Positions 51,317-64,000 of a stretch of DNA of 64,000 nucleotides are shown here, piece after piece. Numbering within the stretch: position 1 is the stretch's first letter; each line of letters opens with the position of its first letter. The stretch spans positions 67,050 to 131,049 of the forward strand of contig CAYYRW010000004.1 in NCBI GenBank assembly GCA_964474205.1, in the 5' to 3' direction. Below the pieces are notes generated by a model, which had not been told where the DNA came from, ran no database searches, and worked only from the letters and a program-made list of their open reading frames with translations. Source of the DNA: an uncultured Nitrospirales bacterium (GTDB lineage Bacteria > Hydrogenedentota > Hydrogenedentia > Hydrogenedentales > CAILVY01). The position numbers and the translations under genes are program-made.

Positions 51317-54300
51317 ATGCATAAATGGCCGTTTGGTGCAATGCTTGTTTTATGGGCGCTGTGCAATGGTTTTTTTCCGGGGCTGGCCCCGTCCGCACTC
51401 GGGGAAGAAAACGCAGACCTTTCGTCCCTGTATGTTCGGGAATCGTCCTGGCAAAGTACCATGCAGACTGCGCGGGAACGGTATCAGGCATGGCGGGCGG
51501 AACAATTGGGCGGAGCGGACATTGCCTTTGGGACTTGGTATGTAACGAGCCCGTTCAAGATTGCCGCCTCTTCGGAAGCTTTTCCCCCGGAACAAACCAT
51601 TGATGTCAACGCCACAACGCCTGACGGAAAACCCCTCTGGACGATTCGAAATGACTTTGTGGATGGCGCGGTGCATTCTCTGCCGGGCGACAATCTTGCC
51701 GCCGTGTATCTGACGCGCACCCTCACCACTCCAAAGCCTCTGACAATCAACGTTGGCCTGGGCGGCGATGATAACCTGACGCTCTGGCTCAATGGGGCCA
51801 AGGTGACCACCACGGATGTCCGGCCCGGCGCCTCACAGGATGCCGCCACCGCAAGGCTTGCCCTGAATGAAGGCGAGAACCGGCTGGTGTTGAAGGTCTA
51901 CAACCTGACGGGGTCCTGTGCGTTCTATTTCTCCATTCAGAATGATCCGGTGATGACGCTCTGGAACCGGATCAAACAAGACTTCCCGATGGAAACCGGC
52001 TGGGTGGAGCGTGATGCGCCGGACGAGCGGTATGTGGAATGGTTTTCGCTTCCGGACAACAAGAGCGCCCAGGAAGCTTTGCTCACACAGGTTCTGCGTG
52101 ACAGTGGCGAGGCCGGTGAACCCTTGCGAAAAGAACTGGTTGAGCTCGGAAAGGTGCCCGCCCAAGATAAGCAATGGCTGGACTTCTATGTCAAGGCCTG
52201 CACGTTTCGCCAGGGCATGGCGGAACTCGCCCAAGTCAATTTCCCGGCCTTGCGGCTTGCGGTTCAGGATCTGGCGGCCACGTTCCCGGACCGTTACACA
52301 AAATCCAAAAAGTTGCTCGCACACCTCGACGACTATGAAAAAAGAATCCCCAAGATTCAGCAGCACCTTGCAGAAGGCGATGATAAAGGCCTGAAACAAG
52401 TCGAAGAAATTCTTGCGCTCCAATACGAGGCGCTTGGGACCAACCCGCTGCTGGACTTCGACAAACTGCTCCTGGTTAAGCGCGCGGAAGGCAATCTGGG
52501 GTTGCCGCAAAACTGGCAGGGCAACTGTGCCATAGCTTCCGCGGGATATGACAATGAAATCGCCGTGCTCTCCCCCGTCAGCGCCGGGGGCATGCTGACC
52601 ACCTTCTTCAAGCCGGAGAAAGGCGCCTTCGCCGGGGACCTCGATTTGAATTTCGACGCGGACAAAATTCTCTTCTCCATGCCCGGCGCGAACAACCGCT
52701 GGCAGATTTGGGAAATCCAGGCGGATGGCTCCGGGCTGCGCCAGGTCACCCCCGGAGAAGAACCGGACGTGGACAATTACGATCCCTGCTATTTGCCGGA
52801 TGGCCGCATCATTTTCGCGTCCACCCGATGCTTTCAGGGCATTCCCTGCGTGGGCGGCGGGAATACCGTGGCCAACCTGTGCCGCATGGATGCGGATGGA
52901 AAGAACACCCGCCAGCTTTGTTTTGACCAGGACCACAACTGGTGCCCCACGGTGCTCAATAACGGGCGGGTCATGTTTTCGCGCTGGGAATACTCGGACA
53001 CCCCGCACTATTTCAGCCGCCTCTTGTTCAACATGAATCCCGACGGCACAAACCAGAGCGAGTATTACGGCAGCAATTCCTTCTGGCCGAATTCCATCTT
53101 TTACGCCCGGCCCATTCCCGGAAACCCCACACAGGTCGTAGCCATTATCTCAGGGCATCACGGGGTTCCACGCATGGGCGAACTCATTATCCTGGATCCC
53201 GCCAAGGGACGCTTCGAGGCGGATGGTGTGGTGCAGCGCATTCCCGGGCACAATAAAGCGGTCGAGCCCGTTATCATGGACACGCTCGTGGACGGCGTAT
53301 GGCCCAAGTTCCTGCATCCGTATCCGCTGAGCGACAAGTATTTCCTCGTTTCGTGCAAGCCCACCCCGGATTCCCTGTGGGGCATTTATCTGGTGGATGT
53401 TTTCGACAACCGTCTTCGCTTGTGTGAAGTTCCCGGATACGCCCTGCTGGAGCCGGTTCCCTTCCGCAAAACGCAGCGTCCGGCCGTCATTCCCGACACC
53501 GTGAAGCTCGACCGGACGGACGCCACGGTCTATCTCACGGACGTCTATCGCGGCCAGGGATTACAGGGGGTTCCGCGCGGCACCGTCAAATCATTGCGCG
53601 TGTTTGAGATTTATTACACCTATCCCCAGATGGGCGGGCACATCAACATCGGCGTCGAAGGCCCGTGGGATGTGCACCGCATCCTGGGCACGGTCCCGGT
53701 GTACGAAGACGGTTCCGCATATTTCAAAATTCCGGCGAATATCCCCGTGGCGGTGCAGCCGTTGGATGACCAAGGCCGGGCCGTCCAAATCATGCGGAGT
53801 TGGTTTGTGGGCATGCCCGGCGAATCGGTATCGTGCGTGGGATGCCACGAGCAACAGAACATGACGCCGCCTTCCATCCCGACCCTTGCCGCGCGCCGCG
53901 CGCCGGTGGACATTACGCCGTGGAAAGGCCCTGCGCGGGGGTTCAGCTTCAAACGCGATGTGCAGCCGGCGCTCGATACGTTCTGCGTCGGCTGTCACAA
54001 TGGCGCGGGGGAGAACAAAATTCCCGACTTTTCGTCCAAGGATAAACAAGGCCAGAATAATTTTACGCCGTCTTATCTGGCTTTGCATCCCTATGTGCGC
54101 CGCCCGGGGCCTGAGAGCGACTATCACATTCAGAAACCTTTAGAATTCCATGCAAGCACCAGTCCGCTCATCCAGATGCTGGAGAAAGGACATCATGGGG
54201 TGAAGCTCGATTCGGATGCCTGGGACCGTCTGTATACCTGGATCGACCTTAACGTTCCGGATCATGGAACCTGGGGCGAGCACCGCGCCATCCCGGGCGA

Positions 54301-55348
54301 TTTCCATCAACGGCGCTTGGAGATGCGTACAAAGTATGCCAACCGGCCCGAAGATCCGGAAGCCATCCCCGATCTCAAACTGCCCCCGGCTGTGTTCGTC
54401 AAACCCGAGCCTCCCGCCGTCCCCGCGCAACAAGACGTGACCTGCGAAGGCTGGCCATTCGACGGACGCACGGCAGCGGCCTCCCAGCAGCGCCGGACTG
54501 TGGATCTCGGCAATGGCGTCGTGCTTGAGTTTGTGTTGATCCCGCAGGGTGAATTTATCATGGGCGGCAAAGACGGATGCGCCGACGAACAACCGCGCAC
54601 CCGCGTTAAGATTGATAAGCCGTTCTGGATGGCCGTAACTGAAATTACAAATGCGCAATACGCACAGTTTGATCCGAAGCATGAAAGCGGTGTCATTGAT
54701 CAGCATAACAAGGATCACACAACGCGTGGCTATCCGGCCCAGGCCCCCAAGAATCCCGTCATTCGCATTTCCTGGAATGAAGCCATGGCCTTCTGCCAGT
54801 GGCTGTCCCAGAAAACCGGTGAAGCCTGCGCGCTGCCGACCGAAGCCCAATGGGAATGGGCCTGCCGCGCCGGGACGGATACGCCCTTGTGGTACGGTAA
54901 CCTGGATTCCGATTTCTCCGCCTGCGCCAATCTCGCGGACAAGTCGATCCAGCGGCTCGCCGTCGCAGGGATTAATCCACAGCCCATCGAGAACCCCAGC
55001 CCCTTCGATGATTTCCTGCCCAAGGAGCCTCGCTTCAATGATGGCGAACGGATTGTAACCGAGACCGGAAAATACCAGCCCAACCCCTGGGGATTATTCG
55101 ACATGCACGGCAACGTGGCCGAGTGGACCCTTTCCACCTTCCGAGCCTATCCCTATGTGCCTTCGGATGGCCGTGACGATCCCAAAACGCCGGGCAAAAA
55201 GGTGGTTCGTGGCGGTTCCTGGTTCGACCGGCCCCAAACCGCCCGCTCCGCCTACCGCCTCGCCTACGAACCCTGGCAGCCGGTGTATAACGTCGGTTTC
55301 CGGGTGATCTGCCCCGTGAACGACGCCGCTAAAATCGCCCAGAAATAA
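51317..55348 (+). CDS. Giant secreted multidomain protein: PA14-like + TolB-like beta-propeller + di-heme c-type segment + C-terminal FGE/SUMF1-like domain
   Basis: Signal peptide. The PA14-like block is INVGLGGDDNLTLWLNGAKV. Propeller-like repeats include DPCYLPDGRIIFAST and CPTVLNNGRVMFSRWEY. Two CxxCH motifs are CVGCHEQQ and CVGCHNGAG. The C-terminal FGE-like domain carries GEFIMGG...PxxxV, WNEAMAFCQWLSQ, HGNVAEW and RGGSW. Confidence 0.85.
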   Translation: MHKWPFGAMLVLWALCNGFFPGLAPSALGEENADLSSLYVRESSWQSTMQTARERYQAWRAEQLGGADIAFGTWYVTSPFKIAASSEAFPPEQTIDVNATTPDGKPLWTIRNDFVDGAVHSLPGDNLAAVYLTRTLTTPKPLTINVGLGGDDNLTLWLNGAKVTTTDVRPGASQDAATARLALNEGENRLVLKVYNLTGSCAFYFSIQNDPVMTLWNRIKQDFPMETGWVERDAPDERYVEWFSLPDNKSAQEALLTQVLRDSGEAGEPLRKELVELGKVPAQDKQWLDFYVKACTFRQGMAELAQVNFPALRLAVQDLAATFPDRYTKSKKLLAHLDDYEKRIPKIQQHLAEGDDKGLKQVEEILALQYEALGTNPLLDFDKLLLVKRAEGNLGLPQNWQGNCAIASAGYDNEIAVLSPVSAGGMLTTFFKPEKGAFAGDLDLNFDADKILFSMPGANNRWQIWEIQADGSGLRQVTPGEEPDVDNYDPCYLPDGRIIFASTRCFQGIPCVGGGNTVANLCRMDADGKNTRQLCFDQDHNWCPTVLNNGRVMFSRWEYSDTPHYFSRLLFNMNPDGTNQSEYYGSNSFWPNSIFYARPIPGNPTQVVAIISGHHGVPRMGELIILDPAKGRFEADGVVQRIPGHNKAVEPVIMDTLVDGVWPKFLHPYPLSDKYFLVSCKPTPDSLWGIYLVDVFDNRLRLCEVPGYALLEPVPFRKTQRPAVIPDTVKLDRTDATVYLTDVYRGQGLQGVPRGTVKSLRVFEIYYTYPQMGGHINIGVEGPWDVHRILGTVPVYEDGSAYFKIPANIPVAVQPLDDQGRAVQIMRSWFVGMPGESVSCVGCHEQQNMTPPSIPTLAARRAPVDITPWKGPARGFSFKRDVQPALDTFCVGCHNGAGENKIPDFSSKDKQGQNNFTPSYLALHPYVRRPGPESDYHIQKPLEFHASTSPLIQMLEKGHHGVKLDSDAWDRLYTWIDLNVPDHGTWGEHRAIPGDFHQRRLEMRTKYANRPEDPEAIPDLKLPPAVFVKPEPPAVPAQQDVTCEGWPFDGRTAAASQQRRTVDLGNGVVLEFVLIPQGEFIMGGKDGCADEQPRTRVKIDKPFWMAVTEITNAQYAQFDPKHESGVIDQHNKDHTTRGYPAQAPKNPVIRISWNEAMAFCQWLSQKTGEACALPTEAQWEWACRAGTDTPLWYGNLDSDFSACANLADKSIQRLAVAGINPQPIENPSPFDDFLPKEPRFNDGERIVTETGKYQPNPWGLFDMHGNVAEWTLSTFRAYPYVPSDGRDDPKTPGKKVVRGGSWFDRPQTARSAYRLAYEPWQPVYNVGFRVICPVNDAAKIAQK

Positions 55349-55459: not shown

Positions 55460-55681
55460 TTAATTATGTGTTTGTGATTTTTCCGAAATCCTAATATCCG
55501 GATTTCCAATCTCAAGTTGTTTTCTTATTAGTATGCACAGACTATTCGGCAATTCACCATGGCGGGGCACCGGCGCTTTTCGCTGTGTGCGTGGATTTTT
55601 GTAAATGTCATGGTTGGCTCCTCTGCGAAGAAGTACACACCCCGCCCTCTTGAGTTCCTGTATAAATTCCGTCCGCTTCAC
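55460..55681 (-). CDS. hicA: HicA-family mRNA-interferase toxin
   Basis: VKRTEFIQELKRAGCVLLRRGANHDIYKNPRTQRKAPVPRHG-ELP matches the HicA dsRBD-like toxin. GTG start overlaps the hicB stop (GTGA). Confidence 0.75.
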   Translation of the reverse strand: MKRTEFIQELKRAGCVLLRRGANHDIYKNPRTQRKAPVPRHGELPNSLCILIRKQLEIGNPDIRISEKSQTHN

Positions 55682-55884
55682 ACGTGAAGAACCAGTTCTT
55701 TGATACAGATATCGGCGCCTGAAGGACCTTCCTCGTCCATCATCATCAGTTCGTAGGCTTCTTGAATGTTGTGTTCCAGTTCTTCCAGGGTTTCTCCCTG
55801 TGAGAAAACACCCGGCACTTCCTTGAGGCGGCCCACGTACCAACCTTCATCTTTCCAATACTCAAGGGCAAATGTGCGTACCAT
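55678..55884 (-). CDS. hicB: HicB-family (UPF0150-like) antitoxin
   Basis: YWKDEGWYVGRLKEVPGVFSQGETLEELEHNIQEAYELMM matches the HicB N-domain consensus (Y-A-x-PELPG-SQG-T-EEA-N-EA). AGAGGAGA RBS. Confidence 0.75.
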   Translation of the reverse strand: MVRTFALEYWKDEGWYVGRLKEVPGVFSQGETLEELEHNIQEAYELMMMDEEGPSGADICIKELVLHV

Positions 55885-56146: not shown

Positions 56147-56533
56147 TCACTCTGCGGTTTTATCAACAATGGGTAATCTCCGGACACGAATGGAATCCTG
56201 GCGTATGGCCAAAATGGCTCCTGCTTGAAGCGCTTCGCCACACGTATTCATTGCTTCCTCAAGACGTGGAATTACCGACTCCGCTGTCTCATCATCCAAT
56301 CGAAAAATGATTGTGGATGGCGCCTGCCACCCGCTCTGGGCCAATAAATAGCCAAAATCCAAGTCCATTGTAAGGAGTATCCGGTCCTCATCGCGAGCCT
56401 TTTTCAGAACAAAAGGATCTCTCAATGTCTGAAGTCCTTGTTCCCGGAGATGTATCGCATTGTGATCAGCATTTTTCAGCCATTCGACAACATGCCTGGA
56501 AATCCCCATATCAGCCAAGAAGCGCATATGCAA
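56147..56533 (-). CDS. DUF5615-family PIN-like protein (toxin partner of DUF433)
   Basis: MHMRFLADMGISRHVVEWLKNADHNAIHLREQGL...DEDRILLTMDLDFG matches the DUF5615 consensus (FL-DEN-S-L...G-D..H......SDEEI-A-RIL-T-D-DFG). Confidence 0.75.
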   Translation of the reverse strand: MHMRFLADMGISRHVVEWLKNADHNAIHLREQGLQTLRDPFVLKKARDEDRILLTMDLDFGYLLAQSGWQAPSTIIFRLDDETAESVIPRLEEAMNTCGEALQAGAILAIRQDSIRVRRLPIVDKTAE

Positions 56534-56536
56534 CCT

Positions 56537-56761
56537 CTAACCAACCTGAATTTCGTCCCGTGCGAGCCATGCGGCATATTCTAATGATTGCGAAATGTCC
56601 TCGGGGGTAAGATCTGGATACTCGTCTATGATCTGTTGTGTGCTTTTTCCGTGCGCAACCAGATTGATGATCAAAGAAACAGGAATCCGCATACCTCTGA
56701 TGCAGGCTTGGCCTCGCATGATTTCTGAATCAAATGTTATTCGATTAAACACTGGAAACAC
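56537..56761 (-). CDS. DUF433-family protein (antitoxin-like partner)
   Basis: RITFDSEIMRGQACIRGMRIPVSLIINLVAHGKSTQQIIDEYPDLTPEDISQSLEYAA matches DUF433 (ITxDP-xGGKPCIRGTRIPV...IL-DYP-LT-EDI-AAL-YAA). GTG start with AAAGGAGA RBS. Confidence 0.75.
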   Translation of the reverse strand: MFPVFNRITFDSEIMRGQACIRGMRIPVSLIINLVAHGKSTQQIIDEYPDLTPEDISQSLEYAAWLARDEIQVG

Positions 56762-56781: not shown

Positions 56782-56912
56782 GGAGTATACCATATTGCTG
56801 TTTGATTCAACCCTGACTTAACGGCGCCGGAGGCCACCGAGGAGGTCTTGGAATTCGGGGATTTTGAGGGCGTGGGAAACGCCGACAAAGCTAAGGCCGG
56901 CCACGGTGATGG
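56782..56912. repeat. Native murJ 3' end plus downstream leader; right copy of the ~131-bp direct repeat
   Basis: About 91% identity to 55907-56037. Homology extends roughly 20 bp further, covering the RBS of the first gene of each TA cassette. Confidence 0.85.
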
Positions 56913-58395
56913 GTATCACCACGTTGATGCCTTGGGTCCAGAGCGCTTGATGGCCGAGGAAATGATCCAGGCGCACATAGACGCCGTAGGTGACCGCGGA
57001 CATTATGGCGGTGGCCGCGATAATCCGTGCAAAGGCGAAGAGCATGTCTTTGTCCCAGAGCATGCCGAACCGGTTGCAGAGCAGAACGTAGAGGAGCAGG
57101 AAGTTGACCGTGTAGGAGAGGGTGGTGGCGAGGGCGAGGCCGCGGAATCCGAGCGGTCCGACGAGCGCGCAGATCAGGAGGATGTTGAGGGCCATGCTGG
57201 CGGTGGCGATGATCACGGGGGTTTTGGTGTTTTGTTCCGCGTAGAATCCCTGAACGCAGACCTTAACCCAGGCGAAGGGGAGGAGGCCGGTGGAGAAAAA
57301 GATCAGGCCGGTGGTGGTCATGTCCGTCATATTGGGGCCGAAATTGCCGTGTTCAAACAAAAAACGAATGACGGGGCGGCCCATGATGATGAGCCCGGCG
57401 GTGGCGGGGAGCATCATAAAGAAGCTGAGGCGCAGGCCATGGGTCAACGTATCGCGAATCACCTCCTGTTTTCCGCGCGCGGCGGCACGGGAGATCTCCG
57501 GGAGGATGGCGACCGCGACGGCGACGCCGAACACGGACAGGGGCAGTTGTACCAGGCGGTTGGCGTAAAACAGGGCGGAGACGACGCCGCTTTCCAGCGA
57601 GTAGGCGAAAAAGCTGTCCACCAGCTTGTTCACTTCGCCCGTAGCCTGCCCTAAAATCACCGGTATGAGCAGCCACACGATTTTTTGGACACCGGGCTGT
57701 TTCAACTTGAAATTCGGCGTGATGACGCCGACATGTTTTTTCATGGCGGCCCACAACACGAGCAGTTGCGCGATGCCGCCCACCCACACGCCCACAGTGA
57801 GCGCCCAAGCCGGGTCCGGAAAGAAGCGGGACAAACCCAAACAGCAGACAATCAGCCCGATGTTCAGGAGCATGGGCGACCAGGACGGGGTGCTGTAATG
57901 CCGTGCGGCGAAGAGCGGCCCCATGGCGAACACCGCCATGCCGATCAAAAACATGTAAGGGAAATTCCATTCGATCAGTTTGACGGTGAATCGCAGGTGT
58001 TCATCGCTCTTGGGGGCGGCATGGGTCAGGGGGCGCAGCAGTTCCAGCAGCCAGGGGATAAACGGTATCAGGAGCAACCCGATCAGGGTGAGCGCGGAAA
58101 ACAAAATCAGCATGCCGGACATCGCGGCGGACACCAAGGCACGGTATTGCTCCGGCGGGTCTTTTTCCTGGCTTTCCGTGAATACCGGCACAAACGCCGC
58201 GTTGGCCGCGCCCTCGCCCAGCATGTCGCGCAGCATGTTGGGGAACCGAAAGGCGAAGAAGAAGGCGTCGCGCGAGGCGTCGGGCACCACATAGCCGATG
58301 ACCATGTCGCGAAACATGCCGAGCACGCGGCTGACCAGCGTACCGCCGGCAAAAATGGCCGTATAGCGGGAAATTTCTTTTTTGGAGGTTTTCAT
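56818..58395 (-). CDS. murJ: Lipid II flippase MurJ
   Basis: 525 aa, 14 TM. N-terminal ...AIFAGGTLVSRVLGMFRDMVIGYV...AFFFAFRFPNMLRDMLGEGAANAAFVPVF is the canonical MurJ/MviN signature. Confidence 0.9.
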   Translation of the reverse strand: MKTSKKEISRYTAIFAGGTLVSRVLGMFRDMVIGYVVPDASRDAFFFAFRFPNMLRDMLGEGAANAAFVPVFTESQEKDPPEQYRALVSAAMSGMLILFSALTLIGLLLIPFIPWLLELLRPLTHAAPKSDEHLRFTVKLIEWNFPYMFLIGMAVFAMGPLFAARHYSTPSWSPMLLNIGLIVCCLGLSRFFPDPAWALTVGVWVGGIAQLLVLWAAMKKHVGVITPNFKLKQPGVQKIVWLLIPVILGQATGEVNKLVDSFFAYSLESGVVSALFYANRLVQLPLSVFGVAVAVAILPEISRAAARGKQEVIRDTLTHGLRLSFFMMLPATAGLIIMGRPVIRFLFEHGNFGPNMTDMTTTGLIFFSTGLLPFAWVKVCVQGFYAEQNTKTPVIIATASMALNILLICALVGPLGFRGLALATTLSYTVNFLLLYVLLCNRFGMLWDKDMLFAFARIIAATAIMSAVTYGVYVRLDHFLGHQALWTQGINVVIPITVAGLSFVGVSHALKIPEFQDLLGGLRRR

Positions 58396-58410: not shown

Positions 58411-60036
58411 CTAGGACCGTTTCTTTGTTGGTTTCCCTTTGGAGGCGGCCTGCGGTTCCGGCGCGGCCGGCGTAGAAAACCCCAGTTTCAAGACTGCACC
58501 CATCACAAACAGGAGCGCCACGCCCAGGCATAACCACGGAAAGATCACCGGCCCGCCGGGAATCGGCCGGTTCGCGGAGGCCGCCACCTTGAGCGCGCCC
58601 ATGCAGCGTTCCATGATGAACATGGCGGGATCTTCAATACGTTCTTTCGGCCATTCGTGATACCGGCCTTGATAGAGCATGGCATTCACGCTTTCAAAGC
58701 GGCCCCAAGGATCAAATACGCCGGAAATGCCGGAATTGGCCACGTGAATCAGCGGCAGCCGGGATTCAATCGCCCGGAAGCGCGCCAACTCTAATTCCTG
58801 CGGGATGGCGTTGCTGCGTCCGAACCAGCCCAGATTCGTCACCACCACCAGGGTATCCGCGCCCATGCGCCGCAGATTCTCGACGAGGGGCGCAAAGAGC
58901 ACCTCGAAACAAATGAGCGGCCCCAAGCGGCGGTTTTCCAAGGTCATTACCTTTTGTTCCGTGCCGGCATCCACGTCAATGGGGGTGATGTGGCGCAGGA
59001 AGGGGAAAATGCTGGAAAAGGGCATGTATTCGCCAAAGGGGGCGAGGTGAACCTTGTCATAATACCCGGCCACCGCGCCTTCCGGCGTCAACAGCAGGCT
59101 GGAATTATAGCTGCGCACCGATCCTTGCACCTCCGCATCGCGCGTGGACCCCGTGAACAGGTGGGCGCCCGTCTGCTTGACTAAATCCGCCATGGGCTGC
59201 ATAAGTTCCGGCGCGGAGTAATCAGACATCACGAGGGCTTCCGGCCAGAAGAAAGATTGGACCGGGTGTTGTTCCGCCAAGGCCTGCGAATGTTCCGCGG
59301 CCTTGACCACCATGTCCCGCGTATAGTCCCGGTCCCATTTCATCTCTTGCGGGAAATTGGATTGAAACAGGCCGGCCGTAAACGGCTTTGACACATAATC
59401 CGCCGGACCCAGCAACATCGAACCGGCCAGGTGCGCGGCGATAACGAGGATAATGGCGGCAACAAGGCGGGTCACGCGCCCGCGCCGCCCGGCTATAGCC
59501 AGTGCGAGCAGCGCGTTAAACGCCACCAACAGGAAGGAAACCGCGGAAACGCCTCCCAGCGCCGCGAATTGCGCCAGCGCGGGGTCTTTGCCCTGGCAAT
59601 AGCCCAGGGCGCTCCAGCCGAAGCCTGAAAAAAGATTGGCCTGGCACCACTCCATCCAAACCCACAGGACGGCGAGGGCTATCGCCCCGGCGAAGGGGGT
59701 TCGTTGACGCGCCCACAGCCAGAGCATGCCCAAACCGGCCCAGAAGAGGGCCAGCGCAATGCAGAGCAGTTGATATCCTATGACGGCCCAGCCGCCGCCC
59801 CAATAGATGTTGCTCATGAGCCATTGCAGCAGAATGCTGTGGAATGCCCAGCCCGCGGCAAAGAAGCATAGGCCCCCGCGCCAGAGGGAGGAGCATTTCA
59901 CCGCCGTGAGAAGGAGCGGGACCAAGGCCACCCACGCCAATACAAAAAGGTGATAGGTGGGAAAGCTCCAGGCCAGGAGCACTCCCGAAACGGGCGGCAA
60001 TATGTATCCGCCATATGCTCGAATGCGTTGTATCAT
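58411..60036 (-). CDS. lnt: Apolipoprotein N-acyltransferase
   Basis: N-terminal 6-7 TM helices, then the CN-hydrolase domain with catalytic-triad context (...ICFEVLF...). Confidence 0.9.
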   Translation of the reverse strand: MIQRIRAYGGYILPPVSGVLLAWSFPTYHLFVLAWVALVPLLLTAVKCSSLWRGGLCFFAAGWAFHSILLQWLMSNIYWGGGWAVIGYQLLCIALALFWAGLGMLWLWARQRTPFAGAIALAVLWVWMEWCQANLFSGFGWSALGYCQGKDPALAQFAALGGVSAVSFLLVAFNALLALAIAGRRGRVTRLVAAIILVIAAHLAGSMLLGPADYVSKPFTAGLFQSNFPQEMKWDRDYTRDMVVKAAEHSQALAEQHPVQSFFWPEALVMSDYSAPELMQPMADLVKQTGAHLFTGSTRDAEVQGSVRSYNSSLLLTPEGAVAGYYDKVHLAPFGEYMPFSSIFPFLRHITPIDVDAGTEQKVMTLENRRLGPLICFEVLFAPLVENLRRMGADTLVVVTNLGWFGRSNAIPQELELARFRAIESRLPLIHVANSGISGVFDPWGRFESVNAMLYQGRYHEWPKERIEDPAMFIMERCMGALKVAASANRPIPGGPVIFPWLCLGVALLFVMGAVLKLGFSTPAAPEPQAASKGKPTKKRS

Positions 60037-60117: not shown

Positions 60118-61278
60118 CTACAATTCGTCCTGCAACATTTTGATCTCTTTCTTGAGATCCTCCTGATGTTTCCATTCACTGCCCTTTTCCCGCCAGAATT
60201 CGAGCGCGCTGCCCGCATCTTCGGTCAGGCTGCGTAAATCCACCACGGTGGGGGACACAAACACGAGCAAATGGCGCACATCGGCCTCCGCCTTGCGTTT
60301 TCGGAAGGCCATGCCCAACACAGGAATTTTCCCGAGGAGCGGAACGCGCCGCTCTTCCTTGGTGACGGTGCGGCTGGAGAGTCCGCCGATGACCAGGGTC
60401 TGTCCGCTGGGCACCACCACAAAGCCGGTTTGCGAGCGTTTGGAGAAAACGGGCAAATCCAGCGCTTTTACCTTGACGGTGGTATTTTCACTTACTTCCA
60501 ATTGTTGCAAATGGAGTTGCACGAAATCATTGGGCAGGATGGTGGGCTGAAGGGCCATGTTCACGCCGACATCGCGCCACGCCATGGCCAGGGCCGGCGC
60601 GCCTTTGGGGTACGTAACGGATTGATAGGGCACCTGCGACCCCGCTTTAATCGTGGCGACGGTGCCATTCACCACCAGAATCTCCGGCTTGGAAATCAAA
60701 TCGAGATCCGTCTTGCTTTCAATAGCGCGAAAAGCGCCTTCCAAGGTGCCTGAGCCAGAAGCAATAATCCCCGCTTCCATGCCGAATCCGCTGGGGACCG
60801 TGCCGGTGCGCAAGGGCGTGGAAGCAACTGTGGGGACGCCCCCCACGCCCGGGGCGAGCGGGGGCGCGGCTGAAGGCGCGGGCAACGTGGCCGTTCCGAA
60901 ATCGTTGGCCGCATTGAACATTTGTGTGCTTACCTGCCGGAGACTGTTATTCTGTTCATTATATTGCTGCGGGTTGGTGGCAAATTCCGCCGGGGTAAAA
61001 CGGGTATAGGAAAGGTTTGCTCCCAGTTTGCGCACGCCGTTTTCGTCCGTTTCGCTGATCCAGACTTGAACCTGAACCTGCCGGATATCCGCAGGCGGCG
61101 GTGGAGGTTCGGGGGCCGCAGGGGCCGCTTCCGGCGCGGGCGCGGGGGCGGGGGCTGGCGCTGCTTCCGGCGCGGGCGCGGGGGCCGGCGCGGGCGGCGG
61201 GGCTTGTGTATTTCCCCATGGCGCCGCCACCAGGAGCAGCACAGCACCCAAGAGAACTATACGCATGCTCCGTTTCAT
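60118..61278 (-). CDS. Secretin-family protein (short, canonical C-terminal secretin domain) with Pro/Ala-rich N-terminal linker
   Basis: Signal peptide. PAPAPAPAPEAAP repeats. Secretin signature ...GQTLVIGGL...VPLLGKIPVLGMAFRKRKAEADVRHLLVFVSPTVV. 4-nt ATGA overlap with the upstream secretin paralog. Confidence 0.8.
   Translation of the reverse strand: MKRSMRIVLLGAVLLLVAAPWGNTQAPPPAPAPAPAPEAAPAPAPAPAPEAAPAAPEPPPPPADIRQVQVQVWISETDENGVRKLGANLSYTRFTPAEFATNPQQYNEQNNSLRQVSTQMFNAANDFGTATLPAPSAAPPLAPGVGGVPTVASTPLRTGTVPSGFGMEAGIIASGSGTLEGAFRAIESKTDLDLISKPEILVVNGTVATIKAGSQVPYQSVTYPKGAPALAMAWRDVGVNMALQPTILPNDFVQLHLQQLEVSENTTVKVKALDLPVFSKRSQTGFVVVPSGQTLVIGGLSSRTVTKEERRVPLLGKIPVLGMAFRKRKAEADVRHLLVFVSPTVVDLRSLTEDAGSALEFWREKGSEWKHQEDLKKEIKMLQDEL
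61127..61198. repeat. In-frame 36-bp tandem repeat x2 encoding the Pro/Ala-rich linker
   Basis: gcttccggcgcgggcgcggggg occurs at 61127 and 61163. Very GC-rich. Confidence 0.8.
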
Positions 61279-62402
61279 TGTTTCTTGTCTCCACCCAGTT
61301 CCGCGGCCACGGGATCCTTTTTCTGATCTCCGGATATGCCATGCACAATGTTTTGCGGGATATCCGTGATGCCGCCAATGACGCCGGTGATGACATCGGA
61401 AGGCGATTTTTTCTTGGACTCTTTTTTGTCCGTTTCTTTATCGCCGGCGTTTTCTTCGGTGAATCCGAAATCATCGGCCACCGTAAACGCGGGCTTCCAC
61501 AATTCGGCTTTGATCAAGAACACCAACTCGCGGCGGATGTCGCGGTTATCCTGTTTTCCCACCGAGGCCGACATGGGCACCTGGGGGACCGTGAACGGCA
61601 TGATCCGCTGCACCAGGCTGTTGGTGAAATCTTCCCCCTGGGCCAGCCAAGGCAGGGTGGAGAGGTCTTTCTGATTCTTCTTGAAATACAGGCCGCCCAA
61701 CACCAGCACTTGGCCGTGGCGCACCCAGACCGTGGTGGTGATGCTCCGGGAAATAAATTCCGGAACTTCGATCGTGCTGCCCCCCATAATAGGGTCAAGG
61801 GCCACGCTCATGGATTGTCCGCGGTCATTCACCGTGGCGGTCAAGGTGAGTTGAATATAGGTGTCTTCCGTGGTGGCCGGATTGCCGTCATCGTCCACCA
61901 CCTTGGTGGCCAGGACGTTCAGCGTGACGCCGGTGGGTTTGAAATTGGTGACGCGCGTGGCGGTCACCCCCACCACCACGATGTCTTCATAGGGGACTTC
62001 TCGGGTGGTTTCGATGATGGTGGGAACGGTTTGGCCCACTTGGACCATCACTTTGGGCTGGGAAAGAATGGAGGCGCGGTTTTGCGACACCAGCGCCTGC
62101 AGGGTAACTTCCATCTGGCCGTAGGCGGTGTAAATGCGGTCGACAAACACGGAGAGCGCGGCGTCCGGGGCGGGGAAGGTGATGTCCGCGCTCTCGATGT
62201 GGCCATTGTGATCGGCGACGCGCCCGTACGGCTGGGGATTGTCCTTATGTTTGAAATAGGCGTTCAAGCCGGTTTCCAGCAGCTTGTTCATTTGGAACTC
62301 AACCACTTTCACCGACACATTCACCTGTTGTTGTTCCTGTGCCGCCGTGAAGGTGGCGCCCGCCAGAAAACTTCCCAGCGCTATGTAAAAAAGCCGTTTC
62401 AT
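61275..62402 (-). CDS. Secretin-family paralog (divergent C-terminal gate/S-region)
   Basis: Signal peptide MKRLFYIALGSFLAGATFTAAQ (ATG 62402; ORF open to 62537). Secretin core SQPKVMVQVGQTVP...ITTTVWVRHGQVLVLGGL. The C-terminal segment lacks the usual IPxLG motif. Confidence 0.75.
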   Translation of the reverse strand: MKRLFYIALGSFLAGATFTAAQEQQQVNVSVKVVEFQMNKLLETGLNAYFKHKDNPQPYGRVADHNGHIESADITFPAPDAALSVFVDRIYTAYGQMEVTLQALVSQNRASILSQPKVMVQVGQTVPTIIETTREVPYEDIVVVGVTATRVTNFKPTGVTLNVLATKVVDDDGNPATTEDTYIQLTLTATVNDRGQSMSVALDPIMGGSTIEVPEFISRSITTTVWVRHGQVLVLGGLYFKKNQKDLSTLPWLAQGEDFTNSLVQRIMPFTVPQVPMSASVGKQDNRDIRRELVFLIKAELWKPAFTVADDFGFTEENAGDKETDKKESKKKSPSDVITGVIGGITDIPQNIVHGISGDQKKDPVAAELGGDKKQ

Positions 62403-62406
62403 GCGG

Positions 62407-63432
62407 TTACCGTTGGAACGTGCCGAGGCATTCATAGCGTTCCACGTTGTCAATGGTGTCAAAATTGGTGAACCGTGCGCTGAACGGGCGCTTTTCGCCC
62501 GGCTGCATCCGGCCCACCGCGAACGTTTGCGTGTCATAAATCATGTTGCCAAAGCCGTAGATGGTGATGATCACCTGGACGTTGCTCAAGGCCTCCTGCC
62601 CCCGGTTCACTACTTCGCCCGTGACGTTATAGGTGGTGTCCTTGAGCGAACTGTTGGTCCATGAGCCAAAGCGTCCGCTGCGGAACGACCGGGTGTTGTA
62701 CACCACCACGGGATTCTGTTCGGCGAAGCGCCGTTCCACTTCCGCGGGCGTCAGGACCGTGAACGAGCCGTCCGGTTCGCGTTCCATCCGGTTTCGGATG
62801 GTGGCGTCGGAAACCAGTTGTGGCCATTGCTGAAGAATTTGTCTATACACCTCACCCGCTTCGGCGTACTGGCCGTTCTTCCAATATAAGTCGGCCAGTT
62901 CGAGTTGTTCGGGAAAGGAGTCCGGCGGTTGCTGCCGCGCTTCGGCGATTTTAACCTGCACGGCTTCTTTTTCCGCTTTCGCGCGCGCCGCCTGGTCTTC
63001 GAGTTTTGCCACGTAGTCGCGGCTCATGGCGGCATATTGTCCATCCGGGGCTTTTGCCAGATAGTCCGAAAAGTAATTATGGGCATCGCGGTAACCGCCG
63101 ATCTTGTAATAAGTCAATCCCAGAAAATAGCGTGCCTCAATGCCCGGCTGGGTGCTGGAATTTTTCGAGAGCACCTGCATGAGGCGCGGGATCGCCAGGG
63201 AATATTCGCCCGCCCGCACCATCCGCTGGGCCACGGCCAGTTCCGTATTGGCCGCCCCGGTGTTCAACACGGGATTGTCCTGGATGGGATTGGCCCCCAC
63301 GGCGCGGGTGGAATTGCTGGGGGCCGTGGCGCAGCCCGCGCAAATCAAGGCAAGGCAGCATGCGCCCGCCGCGCGAAATAAATGATAGCCCGTGCTCCGG
63401 CTCACTATCCGCCTGGATTTGACTGAGGTCAT
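62407..63432 (-). CDS. TPR-repeat lipoprotein (pilotin/PilF-like candidate) with extra C-terminal domain
   Basis: Signal peptide plus lipobox-like LALICAGCA. TPR-like helices (ARYFLGLTYYKIGGYRDAHNYFSDYLAKAP, LADLYWKNGQYAEAGEVYRQIL). 4-nt gap to the secretin gene. Confidence 0.65.
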   Translation of the reverse strand: MTSVKSRRIVSRSTGYHLFRAAGACCLALICAGCATAPSNSTRAVGANPIQDNPVLNTGAANTELAVAQRMVRAGEYSLAIPRLMQVLSKNSSTQPGIEARYFLGLTYYKIGGYRDAHNYFSDYLAKAPDGQYAAMSRDYVAKLEDQAARAKAEKEAVQVKIAEARQQPPDSFPEQLELADLYWKNGQYAEAGEVYRQILQQWPQLVSDATIRNRMEREPDGSFTVLTPAEVERRFAEQNPVVVYNTRSFRSGRFGSWTNSSLKDTTYNVTGEVVNRGQEALSNVQVIITIYGFGNMIYDTQTFAVGRMQPGEKRPFSARFTNFDTIDNVERYECLGTFQR

Positions 63433-63449
63433 GCCACCGTTTCCAGTAC

Positions 63450-63857
63450 TTAGTTGGTTTGATCCATCTTCTTCAGCACAAGATCCGTGATATCGTCCGC
63501 GGGAATGGGGGGCTGCAATGTGCCCAAATAACTGGCGGCGGCGATAAAATCATAGGACCCGTCTTTCGCGGCTTCGGCAATCAGCCGGACAGCATGGTTG
63601 CTGGCTTGACTGACGAGTATCCAGTACTTCGCCGTGTTTTGCTCAATCTTGTTTTTCTTGATGGACAGATATTCCGGAGTTGCCTTCACCACGCGCTCGT
63701 AGTTCACCTTGGCCGGTTTCTGGAAACTGCTGGCGGAGCCCCAGTACACCTTCTTGGCATCCACTTTCTCCACCGGGATGGTATACGTCTCAGCCACCAC
63801 GGTTGACGCAAGCAGCGCACATATTGCCCCCATGGCTATGTAATGGCGTATTCTCAT
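63450..63857 (-). CDS. Small secreted hypothetical protein (135 aa)
   Basis: Signal peptide MRIRHYIAMGAICALLASTVVAE. First gene of the apparent small-protein/TPR/secretin/secretin/lnt/murJ string. Confidence 0.5.
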   Translation of the reverse strand: MRIRHYIAMGAICALLASTVVAETYTIPVEKVDAKKVYWGSASSFQKPAKVNYERVVKATPEYLSIKKNKIEQNTAKYWILVSQASNHAVRLIAEAAKDGSYDFIAAASYLGTLQPPIPADDITDLVLKKMDQTN

Positions 63858-64000
63858 GGATTTCTTCGCCTCTATACACCCCCTGGTGGTCCTTCCTGTG
63901 AGGAAAGGCTTCCCATGGGGGTCTCGGTTCGTTCCTTCTTTCTGCCAATTCTACGATTTCGGGCAGGATATGTCAAGTATTACCCTTTGGGGGAACAAAA

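Follow-up and report, generated by a model that had tools for sequence, protein, structure and literature searches.

We examined a stretch of 64,000 nucleotides of contig CAYYRW010000004.1 (positions 67,050 to 131,049, hereafter the window), in which two adjacent genes encode secretin-domain proteins, here called secretin A and secretin B. They belong to a run of six closely spaced minus-strand genes near the window end, which encode a small protein, a tetratricopeptide repeat (TPR) lipoprotein, A, B, Lnt and MurJ (Table 1). An earlier note, drawn up from the nucleotide letters alone, had described the secretins as translationally coupled paralogues, preceded by a TPR lipoprotein and a small secreted protein and followed at short distance on the same strand by lnt and murJ. 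This layout was confirmed: a lipobox and TPR models were found in the lipoprotein and a signal peptide in the small protein, lnt lies 81 nt beyond secretin B and murJ 15 nt beyond lnt, and both of these genes score above their equivalog cut-offs. A sigma-70-like promoter candidate sits ~90 nt upstream of the small-protein gene, and the gene upstream of the latter runs divergently, as seen on an identical metagenome contig. Therefore, the operon appears to start with the small-protein gene.

The two secretins and their junction

Both proteins score well above the gathering score of 27.5 bits for Pfam PF00263 (Secretin; bit scores in Table 1), A over profile positions 1-138 of 169 (E 1.2e-18) and B over the whole profile, positions 1-169 (E 1.5e-36), which bears out the assignment of both open reading frames (ORFs) to the secretins. 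The A/B junction reads ...AAACAATGAAACGG, in which the ATG of B and the TGA of A share four nucleotides (ATGA), confirming the proposed overlap and coupling. The start of A at 62402, placed 4 nt past the stop codon of the TPR gene, is favoured by the N-termini of its orthologues; longer ORFs starting at 62435 and 62537 are possible and unsupported. Signal peptides were judged by eye at the N-termini of A (MKRLFYIALGSFLAGATFTAAQ) and B (MKRSMRIVLLGAVLLLVAAPWGNTQA) and are kept in orthologues. The two proteins share 25% identity, confined to the core region (BLASTP E 2e-9; hhalign probability 98.3%).

A and B align to the models of GspD and PilQ from the N3 domain through the end of the core. 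No N0, N1, N2, AMIN or PF13629 domain was found in either protein in searches of Pfam and NCBIfam models, and neither PF13629 nor PF03958 (Secretin_N) gave a Pfam match at E <= 0.1. By these comparisons A and B are predicted to be 'minimal' secretins, each consisting of a signal peptide, a single N3-like domain and a secretin barrel. Single-chain AlphaFold2 models, built on 40-sequence family alignments, gave a confident barrel and gate hairpins in both (core pLDDT, the predicted local distance difference test score, ~80-90; for A, residues 100-300), with disordered inserts in the N3-like domain of A and of B and a disordered C-terminal tail in A. When these models were searched against the PDB with Foldseek, the top 39 matches of A and the top 40 of B were all secretins at a probability of 1.00, among them PilQ, GspD/PulD, InvG, BfpB, RcpA and phage pIV. 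The template-modelling (TM) scores were low (~0.3) because a lone protomer was modelled.

The core of secretin B is canonical and includes VPLLGKIPVLGMAF, a loop that aligns to PulD VPLLGDIPVIGALF. Its sequence relatives in the PDB are, best first, GspD/PulD (1.8e-21), PilQ and RcpA (8e-15). The earlier note had likened both proteins to Tad/RcpA-type secretins, but no specific affinity to these was found: PF13629 and Secretin_N are unmatched and B is closest to GspD and PilQ. It had also read the IPVLG motif of B as the S-region; the motif aligns with PulD VPLLGDIPVIG and is thus part of the conserved secretin core rather than of an S-domain. In the AlphaFold2 model, an S-domain-like part is formed instead by two helices (353-365 and 372-385) with which B ends, past the last strand. 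Likewise, what had been called a Pro/Ala-rich tether follows the signal peptide as a free extension of the N-terminus; it has no lipobox and is therefore not a lipid tether. This extension (PAPAPEAAPA-type) covers residues 25-62 of B and ranges from ~20 to 130 aa across orthologues (P0238, P0222, P0228). It may be a periplasm-spanning spacer that substitutes for the N0-N2 domains. Some A-type proteins (P0034, P0078, P0367, P0368) have comparable N-termini, acidic or rich in Pro.

Secretin A keeps the LGGL and VPEF.SRS core motifs and, like B, the gate hairpins. Its double-barrel core carries an extended acidic DDDGN lip loop, and an expanded LPWL..QGED helix region replaces the canonical VPxLGxIPxLGxLF loop; the protein ends in a conserved tail, SPxDVITGV..IPQGIxEGI. 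Its sole single-sequence match in the PDB was a secretin of Acidithiobacillus caldus (8jvb, E 1.8e-4).

Table 1. Features of the window referred to in the text, in window coordinates.
Feature	Position	Strand	Basis
Promoter candidate, sigma-70-like, TTGACA-17-TAGAAT	63948..63976	-	11/12 consensus matches; consensus match alone
Small Skp/OmpH-like protein (candidate), 135 aa, signal peptide	63450..63857	-	Sub-threshold Pfam OmpH match
TPR lipoprotein with C-terminal FxLYD beta-sandwich, 341 aa	62407..63432	-	TPR and FxLYD models, lipobox
Secretin A, 375 aa	61275..62402	-	PF00263, 67.8 bits
Secretin B, 386 aa	60118..61278	-	PF00263, 126 bits
lnt, apolipoprotein N-acyltransferase	58411..60036	-	TIGR00546, 266.8 bits (cut-off 132.9)
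murJ, lipid II flippase, last of the same-strand run	56818..58395	-	TIGR01695, 385 bits (cut-off 235.6)
DUF433/DUF5615 gene pair	56147..56761	-	
UPF0150-family ORF	55678..55884		
Exported 1343-aa protein	51317..55348	+	HZS_alpha-like domain (JGI Pfam table), C-terminal FGE-sulfatase domain
Classical type IV pilin or pseudopilin, 148 aa	110..556	-	

Conservation of the pair within and beyond Hydrogenedentota

One genome per GTDB species was scanned, which gave 96 relatives of A and 80 retrieved loci. Secretin B lies immediately downstream of A in 71/71 Hydrogenedentota species loci with enough flanking sequence, so the tandem pair, whose conservation the earlier note had proposed to check, is invariant. 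The stop/start overlap is present in 68 of the 71, with a length of 4 nt at 52 loci and of 1 nt at the other 16 (taking the first in-frame start of B). Upstream of the pair, the small-protein and TPR genes are found together in 63/64 species loci. The downstream side varies: lnt follows B in 41 of 63 species loci (65%), with murJ next in most of those, and the other genes found there include Rnf, YebC/RuvC, CorA and citrate synthase genes. In a 3.6-Mb genome unrelated genes come after the pair, and lnt is missing after the pair in locus L003 and in all loci of the out-groups described below. The pair had been described as embedded in an lnt-murJ operon. This is true of the window and of 41/63 species, and of none of the out-group loci. 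Having been tried as an integral part of the system, lnt-murJ was for this reason downgraded and is not part of its core.

Homologues of A, of B and of the small protein number in the hundreds, and all that carry a name belong to Candidatus Hydrogenedentes/Hydrogenedentota. The lineage is therefore Candidatus Hydrogenedentota, and an origin in the Planctomycetota-Verrucomicrobiota-Chlamydiota group, assumed in the earlier note, has to be abandoned. Many public metagenome-assembled genomes (MAGs) bearing the cassette (L004, L006, L011 and others) go under the name 'uncultured Nitrospirales' or 'Nitrospiraceae', and the names 'Bathyarchaeia archaeon' and 'FCB group' occur once each (L065, L082); mislabelling or contamination of the bins is the probable cause. 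In one Hydrogenedentota species the cassette is doubled in tandem (L062:2501-11853), as small-TPR-A-B followed by TPR-A-B-lnt, the second copy being without the small gene.

When all flanking ORFs of 83 loci were clustered, the recurrent genes were those of the cassette, lnt, murJ and a GH42-like gene alone. The last of these encodes an exported 857-aa protein (L001:3623-6196, minus strand) and lies just past the window end (>64000). It adjoins the cassette divergently, beside the small-protein gene, in 31/39 species loci, whereas L002 and L009 have it in another place, downstream of murJ. The protein has a weak TIM-barrel match to PF02449 (E 6.5e-6) and no NCBIfam match, and the 'NEP' motif expected for clan GH-A reads 'AEKP' by eye. 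It could be a cargo or partner of the channel.

A profile of A was then searched against 1.84 billion representative proteins. This returned 28 matches at E <= 1e-30, followed by a second tier of secretins of 290-390 aa, whose named members came from Candidatus Sumerlaeota (BRC1) and Candidatus Calescamantes. Scanning metagenomes with these out-group proteins gave 8 loci, 6 of which had room downstream and 4 of these also upstream. An A-like secretin is followed by a B-like secretin in 6/6 loci with room (A2 profile, E 1e-31 to 1e-43), and an orthologue of the TPR/FxLYD lipoprotein precedes the A-like gene in 4/4 (A4 profile, E 1e-55 to 1e-63). In 3/6 loci there is no gap between the A and B genes, which overlap or directly adjoin. 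One such triad shares its contig (677 kb) with the candidate-division BRC1/Sumerlaeota cluster of P0381. The pair is thus present in at least two candidate phyla besides Hydrogenedentota, and the conserved core of the module is the lipoprotein together with A and B. No Skp-like gene, lnt or murJ was found beside the out-group triads; the Skp-like gene is therefore probably an addition made in Hydrogenedentota. Neighbours at out-group locus L085 encode PBP4, PAP2, an epimerase and Kelch proteins. The out-group A and B proteins (L085-L091) are shorter still, at ~300-345 aa each.

Compared with the out-group A-type proteins, which keep the canonical VPxLGxIPxLGxLF loop, A of Hydrogenedentota has a lineage-specific acidic insertion, DDDGNPxTTxD, at the hairpin tip, aligning with the 'NEGD' turn of PulD that we take to be the extracellular lip. 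The helical LPWLxQGED... region and the C-terminal tail are further Hydrogenedentota-specific traits. In a neighbour-joining tree of the core region of Hydrogenedentota and out-group A and B (100 bootstraps), the A proteins of both groups formed one clade in 100/100 replicates and the B proteins in 62/100, and a clade uniting A and B of Hydrogenedentota was recovered in 0/100. As A and B form separate old clades, the duplication is, on this tree, older than Hydrogenedentota and the out-group phyla.

Kimura distances were compared across 32 genomes for A, B, Lnt, MurJ and the cassette proteins. A and B evolve at equal rates (mean distances 0.74 and 0.73) and more slowly than MurJ (0.85) and Lnt (0.97). 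Between A and B, the matrices of pairwise distances correlate with r = 0.92, and a partial r of 0.84 remains after the signal of lnt and murJ is regressed out, compared with 0.36-0.54 for other cassette pairs and 0.36-0.39 for A or B with the shared lipoprotein. Taken together, the adjacency in 71/71 loci, the occurrence in other phyla, lineages older than those phyla and the covariation of rates strengthen the reading of A and B as a pair, and suggest that they are obligate partners.

Partner proteins, known systems and a possible link to a filament machine

The single lipoprotein that accompanies each pair matched TPR_14, TPR_16 and TPR_19 above the Pfam cut-offs and, at its C-terminus, FxLYD (NF038353, 35.3 bits, cut-off 23). 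Its lipobox reads ..ICAGC, and the Cys is conserved in orthologues (C34, nearly invariant in alignment A4). Models of known secretin pilotins matched below threshold, PilW (TIGR02521) at 25.5 bits (E 8.5e-6, cut-off 154) and Tgl (NF033762) at 12.9 bits (E 0.05, cut-off 225), and matches about as strong or stronger went to PrsT, YbgF, BamD, PorW, MamA and LapB. With comparable matches to so many TPR families, what it has in common with PilW, Tgl, BamD and CpoB is generic to TPR proteins. Moreover, the names PilF, PilW and TadD do not occur among the best 60 profile matches of the protein in the PDB. We propose that it serves the two secretins as a pilotin or docking partner.

Conservation of the small protein is high (57% mean column identity, alignment A3), and it has 105 homologues, all at E <= 5e-32, of which every organism-named one is from Hydrogenedentes/Hydrogenedens. 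Its sole match was Pfam OmpH (PF03938) at 17.2 bits, below the cut-off of 32.4. OmpH was also the best or only match in 8 of 10 orthologues (14-23 bits, E 1e-4 to 0.05), every time over profile positions ~67-141, the C-terminal third, and was absent in the other 2 orthologues examined. One orthologue is named 'Skp family chaperone' by JGI and three carry a precomputed PF03938 match; a search of the small-protein profile against PDB sequences gave no match. With moderate confidence, these partial matches point to a distant, shortened Skp/OmpH-like protein, which would act as a dedicated, lineage-specific chaperone or secretin-associated subunit.

A and B belong to the secretin superfamily and lie outside GspD, PilQ and RcpA/CpaC as these are defined by models, domains and operons. 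In B, the gate hairpins, lip and VPLLGxIPVxG loop all have aligned counterparts in PulD. However, A and B are half the length of GspD and PilQ and lack their N0, N1, N2 and AMIN domains, and where those proteins are encoded by a single gene, here there is an invariant pair of divergent paralogues outside gsp and pil operons. Both fall far short of the curated cut-offs, for GspD (TIGR02517, 351 bits) with 126.2 bits for B and 50.4 for A, aligned over model positions ~335-591 of 600 (N3 and core), and for PilQ (TIGR02515, 284 bits) with 123.3 and 57.2 bits, respectively. The Tad system, in which RcpA/CpaC is a short secretin with an adjacent dedicated outer-membrane lipoprotein, TadD (PDB 8odn), resembles the module in that arrangement; TadD, too, contains TPRs. 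RcpA came up in the searches by sequence and by fold, and JGI labels some A orthologues 'CpaC'. Yet RcpA is not the closest relative of A or B, no PF13629/BON-like N-terminal match is seen here, and the module lipoprotein differs from TadD by its extra FxLYD and shows no specific similarity to it.

A TPR lipoprotein encoded beside the secretin is also known from PilF, PilW and Tgl of T4aP systems, with which the module lipoprotein shares lipobox and TPR, although it scores below the cut-offs of the PilW and Tgl models. In BfpG-BfpB (PDB 9u5s) and TcpQ-TcpC of T4bP systems a small exported protein is encoded with secretin and lipoprotein, as here; BfpB-BfpG is among the fold matches of A. The small protein resembles the Skp/OmpH family in its C-terminal half, but is shorter than Skp and matches it below threshold. 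The best solved-structure sequence match of A, an A. caldus 'type II and III secretion system protein' (8jvb, 9wfd), shares a '..LPWLG' motif with A and is weakly similar (2.3e-7 with a profile); it is a homo-oligomer of a 502-aa protein, with 28 chains in two entries, consistent with a 14-mer. In its working, the module is reminiscent of a secretin with a TPR-lipoprotein pilotin, such as RcpA-TadD or PilQ-PilF/PilW/Tgl, and the small partner recalls BfpG and TcpQ.

In diderm bacteria a type IV filament needs a secretin as its outer-membrane exit. When the window's remaining 40 large ORFs were searched with Pfam, there was no ATPase or platform gene of a type II secretion system (T2SS), type IV pilus (T4P) or Tad system, and neither gspC-M nor other T2SS genes in the 64 kb. 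The window does encode a classical type IV pilin or pseudopilin, with the N-terminus MSKKTGFTLIELMIVV..., also given as MSKKTGFTLIELMIVVAIIAIIAAIAIPNLL. The earlier statement that inner-membrane components of a pilus or T2SS were missing from the window therefore stands for ATPase and platform and is incomplete as regards the pilin. No assembly genes lie beside the pilin gene, either in the window or on the independent contig L084; the gene adjoins one for GH106. The flanks of 91 loci (~1.1 Mb) were also screened. No GspE-type or TadA/CpaF-type ATPase motif was found in them, in a motif screen run without a positive control, and flank clustering revealed no tadZABC/cpaEF genes, flp pilin or pilMNOP near the pair, pilMNOP being absent from the window survey as well.

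Elsewhere in the window, the DUF433/DUF5615 pair directly downstream of murJ is probably a toxin-antitoxin-like module; the UPF0150-family ORF and the exported 1343-aa protein are listed in Table 1. The window is rich in glycoside hydrolases and sulfatases (GH106, GH172/DUF2961, sulfatase), an abundance that fits a polymer-degrading lifestyle.

A proposed two-paralogue channel and competing explanations

The explanation we favour, at a probability of about 0.5, is that A and B form an obligate two-paralogue minimal secretin channel which, with its lipoprotein and chaperone, serves a filament machine encoded elsewhere. The overlapping genes would have A and B translated in a fixed ratio, and the two proteins would enter one complex, most likely a single ring of alternating subunits with a double beta-barrel and a gate, to which A would supply a longer acidic lip and a different membrane-proximal helix. 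A heteromeric A/B assembly is plausible from the sequences, at nearly even odds. The fuller picture of one alternating A/B ring as an ancient design spanning several phyla, equipped with a lipoprotein, devoid of N0 and bearing a new connection to the inner membrane if any, is somewhat more tentative. S-domains bind pilotins in the T2SS; here the TPR/FxLYD lipoprotein would be an outer-membrane pilotin or docking ring and may bind the distinct C-terminal tails. N-acylation would render it competent for outer-membrane sorting, a need that may explain the frequent lnt neighbour, which could equally be mere operon history. The role of the shortened Skp-like protein in the periplasm of Hydrogenedentota would be to accompany the subunits or to cap them. 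A type IV pilus or T2SS-like machine elsewhere in the genome would then use the channel to cross the outer membrane; the type IV pilin of the window, a filament subunit in need of such an exit, speaks for this, which is nevertheless the weakest step.

Several observations weigh against this explanation. In characterised systems the N0 domain couples the secretin to the inner-membrane platform, and neither A nor B has one; ATPase, platform and pilin genes are also absent within ~8 kb of all 91 loci. For these two reasons the link to a filament machine is weak. The solved secretins retrieved consist of one secretin sequence, with 12-15 chains per entry, so that a mixed ring is without precedent among them. 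The pairwise distances depend on one another, and structural constraints are common to paralogues; moreover, separate rings in one pathway would also give covariation and synteny. The B clade has a bootstrap of just 62/100, the similarity of the TPR protein is generic or BamD/CpoB-like and not specific to PilF, PilW or TadD, and the Skp/OmpH assignment falls under the curated cut-off in every orthologue.

The single-sequence rings would be expected if A and B built separate homo-oligomeric channels that serve different machines, such as a pilus and a secretion pseudopilus, or different substrates, with the genes kept together by a common lipoprotein pilotin, chaperone and regulation. The low identity of A and B and the strong differences in lip loop, LPWL region and C-terminal tails, which could mean different partners, agree with such a division. 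We nevertheless consider it unlikely, as neither paralogue has been lost or separated in 71 + 6 loci from at least three phyla, the conserved stop/start overlap implies a fixed ratio, and the partial correlation between A and B is far above that with the lipoprotein they share. The loss of the canonical VPxLGxIPxLGxLF motif from A, its incomplete coverage of the Pfam profile and its slight similarity to solved secretins could instead mark A as a degenerate 'pseudosecretin', a non-pore scaffold, cap or regulator of a homo-oligomeric B channel. This is very improbable: A is as conserved as B and keeps a long barrel and gate hairpins, modelled with high confidence, together with the LGGL and VPEF.SRS motifs, and since out-group A-type proteins retain the canonical loop, the A lineage is not generally degenerate. 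The idea that a frameshift or a sequencing error at ~61275 broke a single ancestral secretin gene in two, which would make the pair an artefact, has nothing in its favour besides the 4-nt overlap and was ruled out, its likelihood being vanishingly small: each ORF is complete, with its own signal peptide, N3-like domain and full core, the exact window protein is also present on independent contigs, and the stop/start junction is kept in 68/71 independent species assemblies.

The pair might also be an autonomous housekeeping channel of the envelope that works with no type IV filament machine. It would be tied in function to the biogenesis of the envelope, and might export or import a polymer, a lipoprotein or another envelope component. 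The lack of N0, N1 and N2, with model alignments that begin at N3, would suit such a role, as would the fact that the pair is never beside ATPase, platform or pilin genes in the ~1.1 Mb of flanks. So would its envelope-gene neighbours (lnt-murJ in 65% of Hydrogenedentota loci, PBP4 and PAP2 at an out-group locus), the Skp-like and BamD-like character of the partner proteins, the slower evolution of A and B than of Lnt and MurJ, and the linked exported GH42-like protein (31/39 loci). However, housekeeping neighbours are weak evidence and vary, and the genome encodes a type IV pilin that needs an outer-membrane exit. To our knowledge, all secretins whose function has been established act together with a machine that assembles a filament, a needle or a phage. 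We rate an autonomous channel as quite improbable.

We found no description of heteromeric or tandem secretins, or of Hydrogenedentes or Sumerlaeota secretins, in the open-access literature searched, which is weak evidence of absence. The pair and its minimal architecture represent a real, strongly conserved and previously undescribed variant of the secretin machinery. The two genes have kept their adjacency and coupling from a time before several phyla diverged, in company with a lipoprotein of their own, and their products lack the periplasmic domains that normally provide coupling. This suggests a channel built of two kinds of subunit, possibly with a different docking to the cell envelope. 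If the favoured explanation is right, this would be the first hetero-oligomeric secretin, and would change the view of secretin symmetry, gating and assembly. With roughly 300 residues per subunit it would offer a compact system for structural work. Moreover, a likely exit for secretion or for pili would become known in abundant uncultured bacteria that degrade polymers.

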